Virus record (IMG/VR): IMGVR_UViG_2823670853_000002
Length of the DNA: 64,000 bases
Direction: 5' to 3' (one strand)
Source of the DNA: a virus
Lineage: Duplodnaviria > Heunggongvirae > Uroviricota > Caudoviricetes
The notes under the pieces: generated by a model
Databases searched by the model: none
What the model was told of the DNA's origin: nothing
What the model saw: only the letters and a program-made list of their open reading frames with translations
Part shown: piece by piece, positions 39,371-47,665 of the stretch
How positions within the stretch are numbered: the first letter of the stretch is position 1
Layout: each line of letters begins with the position of its first letter
Made by a program: the position numbers and the translations under genes

Positions 39371-40098
39371 TGGTTGCCTCCTTTTCGAAGCTCTGCGGCA
39401 AAGTCAGTGGCATGTTCACCGAGTAGTTTCCAGTTATCGCGTATATCAGATGCAAATGACTGTTCGGATTTTGAGTTACATTTCTGTGCAAACATCTCCA
39501 ATCCCTGCGCCCGCACTTCAGCCAGGCATTTGCGAAACTCGGAAACGTACTGTTCGACGCTCATTCCCCAGCTAAGTGGACATTCATTGAATGTTTCGCC
39601 TTCGTGCTCTTCATCAGGTAGCTCTTTGGTAAAGAACTCACGCTCAATGGCGTGGAGTGTGTCAGCAAAACGACGTAAGTTACTCAAACCTACCGTAATG
39701 GAGAATTCAGGAGCATCACATCCGACGCCCATCTGCTGATAAACGGCGGTTTTGAAGGCCTTAAGCCCCGCATTCTCCGCCACCAGCGCCGCGAGATTAG
39801 TCTCAAGCTCTGCAATTCGACACATAGCATCAATATTTGTGTCCTCCAGGCGCTTAATTTCACCAAGCAGCTCCAGTGCAACCTTTGGGTTGAACGCGGC
39901 AACATAACGAGCGTTATTCTCTGCGTTTTCCTGTCCATCAAAGCCGGGCCATTTGATAACGTCTCCACATCGTTTATCACCGGGTGTATGCACCGCATAT
40001 GTACCAGTACCCGGCGAAATAAATGCGACCCATTCGTCTGGTGTTGCCTTTTCTGCCGCCTCACGCAGTACCTGATAGTCAATTGTCATTCTCGCCAT
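39367..40098 (-). CDS. ead/Ea22-like protein (paralogue)
   Basis: N-terminal TIDYQVLREAAEKATPDEW; tandem with the preceding paralogue. Confidence 0.6.
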   Translation of the reverse strand: MARMTIDYQVLREAAEKATPDEWVAFISPGTGTYAVHTPGDKRCGDVIKWPGFDGQENAENNARYVAAFNPKVALELLGEIKRLEDTNIDAMCRIAELETNLAALVAENAGLKAFKTAVYQQMGVGCDAPEFSITVGLSNLRRFADTLHAIEREFFTKELPDEEHEGETFNECPLSWGMSVEQYVSEFRKCLAEVRAQGLEMFAQKCNSKSEQSFASDIRDNWKLLGEHATDFAAELRKGGNQ

Positions 40099-40730
40099 CC
40101 TTCACAGTTGTAATCACGACAGCCTTCAAAATCATATGGGCTGTACTGCCAGGTGATTTTTCCGCAATGCGGACAATTCCAACGCACCTTCCCGCTTCGC
40201 GACTTCTTTCTTCTGTTCTGCTTTTTCAACCAGTCAGGCATGACCAAACCTGCGCCCTGAACCATTGTTCTGCGGTTAAATTTATTGATATTGAACGTCC
40301 GGCGCTTTGCTGCATCAGCAATGGAAAATGGCAACCAAACTATTCCTGGTTCGTTTTTGTTGGCGACGCTAAAGATGGTCGCTTTACTGAAGTCATCTGT
40401 TGGCAATCCACCGTGTTGAAGCCAGTAAACATCGTTGCCGTTCCAGCTACCTTTTTTGTAGGCCACATACGCAGTGCAATCTGACTCAATCAGGCTTTCT
40501 GTAGGGATGTACTGGCAATCAACGTGCCACACAGCCATTGCATCCACACTATCGGCACAAACAGGCTGATCGATATCTCGCCCACAATTCCAGGCTTTTT
40601 GGGCTTCTTCCAGCGTGTAAACATGAGCGCGATCGATATCAGAACTGTAACCATTGCCGTTATGGCAATGGAATGAGGCGTTATTACCCACAGTTTCACG
40701 CAAGCACATCATGTAAAAACGGTTACTCAC
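40086..40730 (-). CDS. hypothetical protein with C-terminal zinc ribbon
   Basis: CPHCG...C...C near the C-terminus; GTG start 6 nt after AGGAGG with GTGA overlap to the upstream stop (track start 40766). Confidence 0.45.
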   Translation of the reverse strand: MSNRFYMMCLRETVGNNASFHCHNGNGYSSDIDRAHVYTLEEAQKAWNCGRDIDQPVCADSVDAMAVWHVDCQYIPTESLIESDCTAYVAYKKGSWNGNDVYWLQHGGLPTDDFSKATIFSVANKNEPGIVWLPFSIADAAKRRTFNINKFNRRTMVQGAGLVMPDWLKKQNRRKKSRSGKVRWNCPHCGKITWQYSPYDFEGCRDYNCEGWRE

Positions 40731-40966
40731 TGGATGCCTCCTTGGTGAAGTTGCGCTGCGATGCACGAAAAAAAAGACTCCCGAGTATGACTGTTAAGAG
40801 CTGGTGCGAACGCCTCGTTAAGAACGGCGGCATCACAGCCGTCATCAATATAGAGCGCAATTTTTTTCTCCAGGCGCGCTTTGGCTTCCTGCAACTGCAT
40901 ACCCCGGCACGCACGCGGGATATAATCAGCAATTTGAGCGATAGCTTTTTCGTTCTGTTTAAACAT
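40727..40966 (-). CDS. hypothetical protein
   Basis: 79-aa ORF translationally coupled to the next gene. Confidence 0.4.
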   Translation of the reverse strand: MFKQNEKAIAQIADYIPRACRGMQLQEAKARLEKKIALYIDDGCDAAVLNEAFAPALNSHTRESFFSCIAAQLHQGGIQ

Positions 40967-41162
40967 GCTTCACCTCGATAGGCTTGATGGTGTCTAACAG
41001 CAGTCGGCGGCGCGTATTTTCTGCAAAATGGCGGCGTCCAGTTTCTTTGTGGTAAAACTCGTTTTTGCCAACGACCCACATCCGCTCTGTTTGGTGCAGT
41101 TTTTTTACCTGCGGGCCATCTTTGGTGATCACGGTACCGGTATGGGTTTTTACGATTGTCAT
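40959..41162 (-). CDS. hypothetical protein
   Basis: 67-aa ORF overlapping the pap stop. Confidence 0.4.
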   Translation of the reverse strand: MTIVKTHTGTVITKDGPQVKKLHQTERMWVVGKNEFYHKETGRRHFAENTRRRLLLDTIKPIEVKHV

Positions 41163-45106: not shown

Positions 45107-45808
45107 TTATTCTGATTCTCGCTCAAAAAACGAGCTAATGAGGGGAAGCCAATCCTCTGACACTTCGCGAGGCCGCGGTTTGCCGTGGAAAAAGATTATT
45201 CGGCAGTCCTTTGGTAATGTCCCATTCCCCCTGGAGTAACGCGCGCTCGCATATTTTGAACCAGGTTCCACAACATCGGCCTTGTAACTTACAAACCATC
45301 CTGGATACAGATCCTGAAATGCTGGTGTATCATCACCCATAACCTTCCGCAAAAACCCCTGATCACCCCAGCATTCAGTAGTAACACAACGAGCAATCCA
45401 ACCTTCCGGATCTTGCCAGAATGCACTCCAGATATGCGCTTTTACACTATTTGGTATCCACAGGGCACCGCTACCACGATATTGTGGATGGTAAAAATCC
45501 CTAAGCATGGTGAAGCTGGTTGGTGGATTCTCAAGGATTGGGCGTATATCACCGGCAATAACTGTGTCCAAATCCAGATAGAACAGATCATCGGTTATAT
45601 CCGGTCGGAACAACTCGATTTTCGCCCACCAGCCACGGCACTTTTGCCACTGGTTGATCAATGGGATAACTTTGACGCCAGGTACATGTAAACGCTTCAG
45701 GTCTGTCAGGCAAATAATTTCATAGCCTTTTGGCAGTTGATTAACCAGCCACTGCACATCGGAAGCGTTATAGTCACCACCAGAGCGAAAAACTAAAGCA
45801 ATCTTCAT
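45107..45808 (-). CDS. nucleotide-sugar glycosyltransferase-like protein (GT-A-like, DxD motif)
   Basis: N-terminal beta-strand KIALVF and FYLDLDTVI (DxD); assignment from motif only. Confidence 0.4.
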
Positions 45809-46497
45809 GCTGCACCATCACCTTTCACTTTCATCAATGTCAGGTTTCCGCAAAATACGGCACCAGTGTCGATATACTGCTGATTCCAGAATGTCTTCGG
45901 GCTTTTCACCGGAGTGTGACCAAAGATAAAACGATCTGCGCCCGAAATTTCGCCACCAATATCATCCATCGAATCACTGATACGCTCGCGCGCCCAGACA
46001 ACGTTGAAAAGCGGCACCTCCTTACCGAATTGGTATTCATTATCCGGATAGTCGGCATGGGCTATAACGATAGTTTCTTGCCCGGTGTTCAACTCAATGA
46101 TATAGGGCAGACGCTTTACCAGCTCCACCAGCGCCCAGGCTAATATTTCCTGATCAGTGTCCAGCATGAAGAACCATTGTCCGCCATTCATTAGCCAGTT
46201 ATTCACGTTGCCATCTGGACTTAACGCATCAATCATCAGCCGCTCATGGTTCCCCATCACTGCCCTGAACCAGGGCATCTGCAATAGTTCCAGACATTCG
46301 ACATTTTCAGTACCGCGATCGATAAGGTCGCCGACCGATATCAGTAAATCCTGCGCCGGGTCAAAATCCACACGATGGAGTTCGGACATCAGTCTGGTGT
46401 AGCAACCATGCAGATCACCAACAACCCAGACATTCCTGTATTTGGTACCGTCGATACGGTGATAAATTGTGGGTGCCATCATGTATTCTTCAGCCAT
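45805..46497 (-). CDS. ppp: Ser/Thr protein phosphatase (PPP-family metallophosphoesterase)
   Basis: GDLHG, GDLIDRG and GNHE motifs as in lambda PP; P1 carries ppp. Confidence 0.75.
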
Positions 46498-47105
46498 TCT
46501 TTAAGAGTCATCTGCGGAATACCTCCCATTTTCCCGCATGAAACAACGTCAATCTGTTCACGCGCAGACTGGAATAACAAAGGCAGGTGACTTAGATTTT
46601 TTGGCGTGCCGCCGGAGTGAACGCGTGGTTCTTGTGTAGCGTCAACGCCCACCAGGGCGACATGTTTGAATCCGATATGGAAAGCCAGGTTCAGAGCGCC
46701 ATATGCACTATTGCCGCTGGCAATTTCATTCTCATCTTCGCAAAGTCCGAAATGTGCGGACCAGCGCCACGCCCACCACTCGGGAGAATTCGTATTTTTT
46801 GGCTCCATGCCACGTTCAGCCACACGACGGAAGCACAGAACGCCGTCTCTGACTTCACGTTCTTTAACATCGGGTAGTGCCATGCAATAACAAACACCAC
46901 GGCGACGGCGGCCACGACCAACGCGCCGCATATTGTCTAGCGATGGATCAAGTGTGAAAAAATAAGAAGCGCGGTTCAGCCAGTCGATGGCCCCATTGAC
47001 CGCTATAATCGGCACTCCGCGCGGCGCAACAAAGTTTGCGGCGCTTGGGCCACTGCCGACGATAATAACGCGATCACTGCCTCTAAATTTATTCTTGGGA
47101 AACAT
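46479..47105 (-). CDS. CstII/Maf (DUF115)-like nucleotide-sugar transferase-fold protein
   Basis: [10 protein letters not shown]...IIAVNGA resembles the GxGPSL...N signature of GT42 sialyltransferases and Maf/DUF115 proteins. Confidence 0.4.
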
Positions 47106-47665
47106 TGAATTGCACTGCTCCTACTTGCATTCAAAATATGTAAATCTGCGTGTTTTTTGCGGGTATCCAGGAACTGCTGTTGCCATTTTGAAATAGACAC
47201 CTGCGTTGGATTCCGTAGGGCTTGAGGGTGCGCGCCATGCCAATGAAGGCCGTTTTGCAGAGAACAGTCATAGCCGACTAATACAACTACTTCAGCCCCT
47301 GATTCAGCAGCCAGACTGATAGCCTGCGCGCCGCTATTTACCCCTTCCGCCGGTCCACAATATCGCCTGTACTCCAACGAAAATGATTTCGCCGCCGCCA
47401 GGTTGGCTGTCACTTTGCGGAATTTCCCTCCCGGTATGGTGGATCCGTATTGCTTCCACCATGACAAATCACCGGCGTATAAGGCATAAATGTCATCGAA
47501 CATCTGCCAGGAATTGTTAACCGCGATGATTGAACAGCCAGTTTTTTCTATAGCAGCACAGTCCTCACGAGTGAGTGACGGACCGCTACCGACACAAAAA
47601 ACAGTCCTAGTCGCCCTGGGTGGTATGTTCATTCTCAGCTGCAAATTCAGCCTCCAGGCGAGCAT
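47003..47665 (-). CDS. CstII/Maf (DUF115)-like protein, paralogue
   Basis: TVFCVGSGPSL...IIAVNNS; tandem paralogue, ends overlap by about 100 nt. Confidence 0.4.
   Translation of the reverse strand: MLAWRLNLQLRMNIPPRATRTVFCVGSGPSLTREDCAAIEKTGCSIIAVNNSWQMFDDIYALYAGDLSWWKQYGSTIPGGKFRKVTANLAAAKSFSLEYRRYCGPAEGVNSGAQAISLAAESGAEVVVLVGYDCSLQNGLHWHGAHPQALRNPTQVSISKWQQQFLDTRKKHADLHILNASRSSAIQCFPRINLEAVIALLSSAVAQAPQTLLRRAECRL

Follow-up and report, generated by a model that had tools for sequence, protein, structure and literature searches.

What does a phage gain from a dense run of enzyme-like genes that replication, lysis and morphogenesis do not explain? The question is raised by positions 40086–47665 of a 64 000-nucleotide stretch of viral DNA (IMG/VR record IMGVR_UViG_2823670853_000002; the whole stretch is called 'the window' below), which an earlier note, made from the sequence alone, had taken for a single sugar/nucleotide modification module framed by operators of the C1 repressor. 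The window is a P1-like phage: 42075–47665 shares 98.3% identity with reference P1, in which it covers the genes pmgT, pap, pmgS, pmgR, pmgQ, ppp, pmgP and pmgO, while the leftmost 2 kb (40086–42040) are missing from reference P1 and the entire block is matched at 98–99% by a few P1/P7-type records. We find that a sugar-transfer set does exist, but that it is far smaller than proposed and lies partly outside the block: it consists of pmgO, pmgP and pmgQ, probably with the more distant gene dbn. The density of enzymes is real, but it reflects a mosaic rather than a unit: the 7.6 kb hold accessory genes that were acquired independently and are repressed by C1, with one functional unit among them. 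Coordinates of all features are collected in Table 1.

A three-gene cassette and its probable fourth member

The products of pmgO and pmgP have in common the core fold of the MptE-like/Maf/DUF115 proteins. This was recognized by fold comparison, which was needed because sequence-only searches of the PDB found nothing significant for PmgO, PmgT or the family profiles of PmgP and PmgT. The two proteins are paralogues, as the earlier description of tandem CstII/Maf-like GxGPS proteins had it: their family profiles are homologous (hhalign 98.6%, E 5.5e-16) and both carry a GSGPS motif. PF01973 scores 23.6 bits on PmgO and 20.7 bits on PmgP, both below the gathering cut-off of 34.6, and a precomputed PF01973 match is present on some PmgP homologues; PmgO matches phrog_4603 (E 5e-74). 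The fold of PmgP is also similar to that of a Campylobacter lipooligosaccharide (LOS) sialyltransferase, and when PmgP was compared by Foldseek with the predicted structures of viral proteins, only uncharacterised MptE-like viral proteins came up. In the Maf flagellin glycosyltransferases (PF01973/DUF115), which have about 600 residues, N- and C-terminal substrate-binding domains flank the core, whereas PmgO and PmgP, at about 210 residues, comprise the core domain only and are modelled as a single domain. The pmgO and pmgP genes overlap by 103 nt (47003–47105) in different frames, and the C-terminal tail of PmgO encoded in this overlap falls outside the PHROG profile, which matches residues 25–202.

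The third protein, PmgQ, has a GT-A Rossmann-like fold that superposes on GT8 structures, and the DxD motif from which it had been called glycosyltransferase-like is an invariant DLD: D79-L-D81 and H208-G209-x-P211 are conserved without exception across 31 homologues. We infer, from the motifs themselves rather than from residue superposition, that the DLD and the C-terminal His-Gly-x-Pro correspond to those of GT8. Sequence similarity is slight. PmgQ has no Pfam match (any glycosyltransferase model included) or NCBIfam match at E ≤ 0.01, its best PDB sequence match is a GT8 enzyme at a weak E of 0.08, and it is only 12–17% identical to the CAZy GT8 members LgtC, glycogenin, GlyE and the Skp1 alpha-galactosyltransferase. 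The family is small, with 39 clusters in a search of 5.8 billion proteins.

These three genes travel together well beyond P1. Used as the only query against viral contigs, PmgP found nothing but near-identical P1 relatives, whereas a profile led by a Pseudomonas homologue reached other phages. Nearly all contigs that encode distant PmgQ members (37–48% identity) have adjoining PmgO- and/or PmgP-like genes, usually with overlapping stop and start codons, and the cassette recurs with its gene order kept in lambdoid, HK97-like and jumbo phages. PmgO-, PmgP- and PmgQ-like genes are adjacent in loci L091, L093/L095, L094/L096, L098, L099, L006 and L008 and in phages phiNP, IME392 and XacN1, and PmgO-like genes adjoin PmgP/PmgQ-like genes in L091, L093, L094, L099, L008, L006, L159, L161 and L162; partial cassettes consist of O–Q or P–Q pairs (L003, L009) or of O–P at a contig end (L097). 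Cultured carriers include Citrobacter rodentium phage phiNP, E. coli phages IME392 and EP_H11, and the jumbo phages XacN1, Xoo-sp13, CM1 and RAS14; PmgP homologues occur in 27 cultured-phage records, every one of which belongs to the 31 that have a PmgQ homologue. In a bacterial scan with one genome per species, an MptE-like gene lies near the PmgQ-like gene, mostly directly adjacent, in 32 of the 78 loci with scored hits. Among 48 full-length P1-like loci, comparison of gene content separates a run from pmgO through pmgP, ppp, pmgQ and pmgR to pmgS that is present in all 48 from a PAPS-reductase-like gene at the far end of the block that is present in only three, with pap found in 47. The pmgO-pmgP-pmgQ cassette is very probably a real functional unit.

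PmgQ-like genes also occur by themselves. Six alphaproteobacterial contigs from metagenome-assembled genomes (L220, L223, L224, L226, L229, L231) carry two or three in tandem with no MptE-like partner, and the Pantoea floridensis chromosome (L004/L005) has a lone copy between lpdA and acnB. The Pantoea gene and a lone one in the lambda-like Escherichia phage Chlobot may each encode an enzyme that serves a cellular glycan.

A fourth gene, dbn, is the GT-B-like gene that had been noticed next to the baseplate genes, and its P1 entry reads 'possible glycosyltransferase'. Dbn matches Glycos_transf_1 (PF00534) at E 1.5e-5, with 25.0 bits against a cut-off of 26.4, as well as phrog_2518; the homologue in IME392 scores 26.5 bits, just over the cut-off. 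In P1 the four glycosyltransferase-like genes are split between the ban-dbn and pmgN-Q operons, 6 kb apart. Elsewhere they are contiguous, as seen from two loci: E. coli phage IME392 has the order PmgO-like, PmgP-like, Dbn homologue (47–50% identical), PmgQ-like, all four genes overlapping, and Bradyrhizobium locus L235 has a PmgO-like gene, one intervening gene, and then a Dbn-like gene directly upstream of the PmgQ-like gene. It is thus probable that dbn is the fourth member of the cassette.

The genes of the block had already been named and partly annotated in P1, as the earlier note recognized for pap and ppp; PHROG-derived names such as 'alpha-2,3-sialyltransferase' and 'glycosyltransferase' are in use, and Lobocka's 2004 annotation has dbn as a possible glycosyltransferase. 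What appears to be new is the O-P-(Dbn)-Q cassette itself, its spread across phage types, its position in head modules and the status of ppp as an insertion. Our literature search found no description of any of these four points, and nothing relevant on DUF115 in phages or on capsid glycosylation by sialyltransferase-like enzymes.

The proposed target of the cassette

The genes around the cassette give a hint of its acceptor. Thirteen independent non-P1 phage contexts could be resolved, and in seven of these (the P0032 contig, L003, L006, L009, L091, L097 and L094/L096) the cassette lies inside the head-gene module, 3′ of a capsid, decoration or portal gene and before head-completion or connector genes. 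Two contexts lie between lysis and terminase genes (L008, phiNP/L093) and two upstream of large genes of unverified identity (L098, L099). A similar picture comes from bacterial genomes, where the 120 proteins encoded within three genes of 27 cassettes are most commonly capsid-type (9), Phage_HCP (7) and head-tail connector (5) proteins, and also include many S-adenosylmethionine (SAM) methyltransferases (FkbM type included), radical SAM enzymes, adenosine 5′-phosphosulfate (APS) kinase and sulfotransferases. Where PmgQ stands alone, by contrast, most of the 144 neighbours belong to the cell (response regulators, GT2, Wzy_C) and phage genes are few. Further sugar-type enzymes are encoded by genes inserted into the cassettes themselves, namely Nucleotid_trans-like and GT2-like genes, SAM methyltransferases and a cupin, and in XacN1 (L162) ORF373–375 encode a PmgO-like protein, a PmgP-like protein and a TylF-type O-methyltransferase fused to a PmgQ-like domain. 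XacN1 virions contain at least two glycoproteins by staining, which the authors credit to other glycosyltransferases, ORF328 and ORF334 (PMC5852040). In P7 the corresponding genes are annotated hdmA-D, for 'head morphogenesis', with HdmB noted as similar to orf7 of Pseudomonas phage D3, and in P1 the cassette adjoins pmgR and tail genes, yet sits in an early operon. Ser/Thr-rich C-terminal extensions, sought as an acceptor signature, were absent from the capsid proteins of four cassette carriers.

Because the cassette repeatedly sits among head genes, we propose that pmgO-pmgP-pmgQ, probably with dbn, glycosylate a virion protein, probably of the head, a reading that we hold with about as much confidence as doubt. 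Among the targets suggested earlier (DNA, virion proteins, a host surface), virion proteins best fit the gene neighbourhoods, DNA is unlikely and the host surface is a rival considered below. A short glycan would be assembled stepwise from host nucleotide sugars; genes for making nucleotide sugars are present in none of the cassettes, so the host must supply the donors. PmgQ and Dbn would use UDP-hexoses, and PmgO and PmgP a CMP-activated ulosonic acid. E. coli K-12 does not make pseudaminic or legionaminic acid, and CMP-Kdo (Kdo, 3-deoxy-D-manno-oct-2-ulosonic acid) is its sole CMP-activated ulosonic acid donor; this donor pool suggests CMP-Kdo as a candidate substrate of PmgO and PmgP. In relatives, O-methyl or sulfo transferases would tailor the glycan. 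Modification would take place during morphogenesis, on a virion protein that most likely belongs to the head, and the resulting coat, as in mycobacteriophages, would be dispensable for plaques and alter recognition of the particle surface. In line with this proposal, Maf, GlyE, glycogenin and the Skp1 transferase all have proteins, or glycans attached to proteins, as their acceptors.

The closest precedent is virion glycosylation in mycobacteriophages. According to papers that cite the original study, glycosyltransferases of mycobacteriophages Che8, Corndog and Myrna glycosylate capsid proteins and change surface recognition (PMC11256854, PMC12691614). Those phages infect Actinobacteria; in cluster F1 phages the genes lie near the right genome end and the enzymes are reported only as putative glycosyltransferases. 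The cassette described here combines two MptE/Maf-fold proteins with a GT8-like enzyme and is found mostly in phages of Proteobacteria. Chlorovirus PBCV-1 differs in being a eukaryotic giant virus, in which other enzyme families (A64R and others) make atypical N-linked capsid glycans.

Several observations weigh against a virion target in P1. The case for P1 particles is comparative throughout rather than direct, and the terms sought for glycans or unassigned density were absent from two recent P1 cryo-electron microscopy papers. The P1 cassette genes lie behind C1 operators, which implies early expression, and dbn follows ban, neither being in a head operon, although the predicted late promoter LPpmgL upstream of the cassette operon (Table 1) speaks for the virion reading; likewise, two of the 13 non-P1 contexts (IME392 and the XacN1-like jumbo phages) are outside structural regions. 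A solitary PmgQ-like gene is found next to int and the tail-fibre genes of phage Chlobot, others stand in cellular polysaccharide loci, and the GT8 and GT4 families also build the core of lipopolysaccharide (LPS). Single in-frame deletions of pmgN, pmgO, pmgP, pmgQ, pmgS, dbn, ppp and pap leave plaquing and antirestriction unchanged (PMC9024508), and CRISPR interference scores these genes as non-essential (PMC10695390). These results fit a dispensable surface modification, and equally no role under laboratory conditions. Mycobacteriophage glycosyltransferases are likewise said to have been found dispensable for plaque formation, reportedly by Freeman et al. in 2023 in Cell Host Microbe 31:1216.

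The same enzymes could instead remodel a host envelope glycan from the cytoplasmic side, the candidates being the LPS core that serves as the P1 receptor, enterobacterial common antigen or capsule, and so block superinfection or the adsorption of progeny to debris. This is in keeping with the resemblance of PmgQ to the LOS galactosyltransferase LgtC, which is among its closest folds, and of PmgP to the LOS sialyltransferase mentioned above, as well as with the membership of E. coli LPS outer-core transferases in GT8 and GT4. The lone PmgQ-like gene of Chlobot (L160) lies between int and a tail-fibre assembly gene, a conversion-type locus, PmgQ-like genes occur near Wzy_C and GT2 in bacterial loci, and P1 itself expresses the genes from C1-controlled early promoters. 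Lysogenic conversion, however, is impossible in P1, because C1 repression keeps the cassette off in lysogens; no membrane or export component is encoded; and the capsid or head-completion position of the MptE-bearing cassette in many phages is left unexplained, since expression from such a position would come too late to alter the exported LPS pool. We therefore consider an envelope target unlikely, although it is the most credible of the rivals. It is harder still to credit, although the fold by itself would allow it, that PmgO and PmgP work as nucleotide-dependent pyrophosphokinases, or else as small-molecule transferases, in a cassette that makes or destroys a soluble metabolite such as a modified nucleotide or sugar phosphate: this too leaves the head-module position unexplained, and it does not account for the constant GT8-like partner, often accompanied by further GT-A/GT-B enzymes and sugar-type methyltransferases.

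Least probable by far, to the point that we would be surprised to see it borne out, is that everything in the block, PAPS reductase and pmgO included, works as a single coordinated modification pathway, perhaps with DNA as its target. Its genes do lie on one strand, as the earlier note stated, with C1-regulated early expression and a high density of enzyme-like products. But C1 operators and a strong terminator divide the block (Table 1), so it comprises at least four transcription units: pmgN-O-P-ppp-Q, pmgR-S, pap, and pmgT with the variable genes. The operators are found within the block and beyond its right end, and none lies at the 40086 end, so they do not frame it; their positions, with the terminator, rule out a single operon framed by them. 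Moreover, the PAPS-reductase segment is rare in P1-like loci and is swapped with Shiga toxin (Stx) phages, ppp is missing from Cronobacter phage JK004 and from L092, and pap, pmgT and the PAPS-reductase-like gene were never beside the cassette in any non-P1 locus examined. Modification of DNA in particular is unlikely, as Pfam and PHROG scans of the block proteins and inspection of the cassette neighbours gave no base-precursor enzyme (hydroxymethylase, TET/JBP-type or similar). Ordinary restriction enzymes cut P1 DNA, and P1 packages host DNA in transduction. The published single deletions leave antirestriction as it was (PMC9024508).

Should glycosylation of virion proteins prove correct, it would give a role to four genes, pmgO, pmgP, pmgQ and dbn, that have had none assigned for twenty years, although P1 is among the most used phages in genetics. 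It is conceivable, although we lean towards doubting it, that in P1 and a broad set of phages of Gram-negative bacteria this previously unrecognised enzyme set covers the head, or other virion proteins, with a short glycan, perhaps Kdo-containing and in some lineages O-methylated or sulfated. Virion glycosylation, so far demonstrated in mycobacteriophages, would then be a property of Gram-negative hosts' phages as well, and the cassette would be, to our knowledge, the first defined system of this kind outside actinobacteriophages. Such a coat might help particles to evade capsid-sensing defences, antibodies or non-productive adsorption, with a bearing on the immunogenicity of phages in therapy and on bacterial capsid-sensing defences, and the genes would provide a compact, portable protein-glycosylation toolkit working in E. 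coli. In-frame deletion mutants of every cassette gene exist (PMC9024508), so the question is testable now.

Transcription signals and the remaining genes of the block

Table 1. Features of the P1-like window discussed in the text (coordinates in nucleotides of the window).
Feature	Coordinates	Strand	Description
pmgO (P7 hdmB)	47003..47665	-	MptE/Maf/CstII-fold protein, 220 aa; first cassette gene; region 98% identical to P1 pmgO
pmgP (P7 hdmC)	46479..47105	-	Second MptE/Maf/CstII-fold paralogue, 208 aa
pmgQ (P7 hdmD)	45107..45808	-	GT8-like GT-A glycosyltransferase; last cassette gene
dbn	53601..54599	-	Putative GT-B (GT4-like) glycosyltransferase beside baseplate gene 5; probable fourth member
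ppp	45805..46497	-	Lambda NinI-like PPP-family phosphatase; insertion between pmgP and pmgQ
pmgN (P7 hdmA)	47607..47762	-	Small open reading frame (ORF) heading the pmgN-pmgQ operon; mapped from P1 annotation
pmgR	44807..45025	-	No domain match
pmgS (P7 shtB)	43543..44805	-	Coiled-coil protein; non-essential
pap	42964..43470	-	Stand-alone HAD phosphatase, PNKP type, 168 aa; independent accessory gene
pmgT-like	42041..42769	-	Possibly ASCH-domain protein; very common prophage gene, unlinked to cassette
Variable accessory segment	40086..42037	-	PAPS-reductase-like PP-loop protein (41159–42037) and ORFs of 67, 79 and 226 aa
C1 operator OpmgT (Op88)	42948..42964	-	Between pap and pmgT; identical to P1's annotated operator
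C1 operators Op86b (45040–45056) and Op86a (45089–45105)	45040..45105		pmgQ/pmgR gap, start of separate unit; identical to P1 OpmgRb and OpmgRa
C1 operator Oppp (Op83)	47807..47823	+	Upstream of pmgN; 16/17 positions as in P1's annotated operator
C1 operator	48714..48730		Identical or nearly so to P1's annotated one
Intrinsic terminator-like hairpin	43495..43523	-	Between pmgS and pap; 11 pairs plus T run; strong
Predicted late promoter LPpmgL (-10 and -22 elements)	48745..48763	-	Upstream of pmgL-pmgM-pmgN-pmgO-pmgP-ppp-pmgQ

The remaining genes, for the most part, bear out the family assignments made earlier while falling outside the cassette. The intergenic region between gene 26 and pmgL, in which LPpmgL is annotated as a prediction, is 100% identical to that of P1. 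The ppp product is a PPP-family phosphatase (Metallophos PF00149, 59.3 bits; phrog_246, E 5e-113) that scores 272 bits on NF008516, below the equivalog cut-off of 326, and resembles the lambda phosphatase NinI, to which it is 64% identical according to the P1 note. It separates pmgP from pmgQ in the window and in P1-group loci L105, L106, L119 and L127, and nowhere else; the distant P1-like locus L092, which keeps pmgL-M-O-P-Q-R-S, lacks it, as does JK004, with a gap of 44 nt from P to Q, and so does every non-P1 cassette. Because of these absences we regard ppp as an insertion, and its restriction to the P1 group proper rules it out as a cassette member. Homologues of pmgN were seen only in P1-like loci and not with the cassette outside the P1 group. 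Downstream of the cassette, a pmgR knockout leaves heads and tails unjoined, which identifies a head-completion gene (PMC9024508), and PmgS is the large coiled-coil protein of the earlier note, with weak SMC/Rad50 matches over residues ~60–230 and a match to phrog_1660 (E 1e-195).

The phosphatase with a DIDGT motif is Pap, which matches HAD_PNKP (PF25109) with 44.1 bits against a cut-off of 27.6; it has no kinase domain and so is not a full polynucleotide kinase-phosphatase. The suggestion that PmgT is ASCH/PUA-like fares less clearly: the window protein has no Pfam match, but 14 of 24 homologues weakly match PF04266 (best E 0.0038) and some are named ASCH by NCBI. PmgT has at least 8000 homologues, and a PmgT-like gene is found in 33 of the 48 P1-like loci with a median identity of 70%.

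The PAPS-reductase-like call at 41159–42037 also stands, at family level only, as the match to PF01507 (E 3.7e-9; 37.3 bits, cut-off 22.5) spans profile positions 3–65 of 175, the N-terminal PP-loop part; the protein further matches DndC and TilS weakly. Positions 40723–42028, comprising this gene and two small ORFs, are 92.7% identical at the nucleotide level to Stx2-converting phages, in which it follows recT-exo-ssb in the early-left accessory region. The segment has moved as a small cassette of its own, and the similarity suggests that P1-like phage-plasmids and Stx phages exchanged it recently. A tie between this gene and the glycosyltransferases is ruled out by its presence in 3/48 P1-like loci and its early-left home in Stx phages. 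We read ppp, pap, pmgT and the PAPS-reductase-like gene as individual accessory genes that no evidence ties to the cassette and that should not be taken as one pathway; the last three are also transcribed and inherited independently of it.

A few smaller observations concern the flanks of the block. The PAPS-reductase-like protein has CxxC and CxxxC pairs, potential ligands of a metal cluster. The 226-aa ORF (40086–40766, minus strand; phrog_2457), found in 19 of the 48 P1-like loci, has a C-terminal Cys-rich zinc-ribbon-like segment (CPHCG...CRDYNCEGW). Just downstream of the block, adjacent minus-strand ORFs of 250 and 243 aa (38618–39370 and 39367–40098) have in common the N-terminal motif IDYQxLREAAE...; the pair (38618–40098) looks like tandem Ead/Ea22-type paralogues, and a related record annotates an 'EaA protein' nearby. 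At the other end, PmgM and PmgL (47830–48408 and 48411–48656, both on the minus strand) are VRR-NUC-type nuclease-like and DksA-like zinc-finger proteins, respectively, and despite their 'pmg' names neither is morphogenetic by homology.

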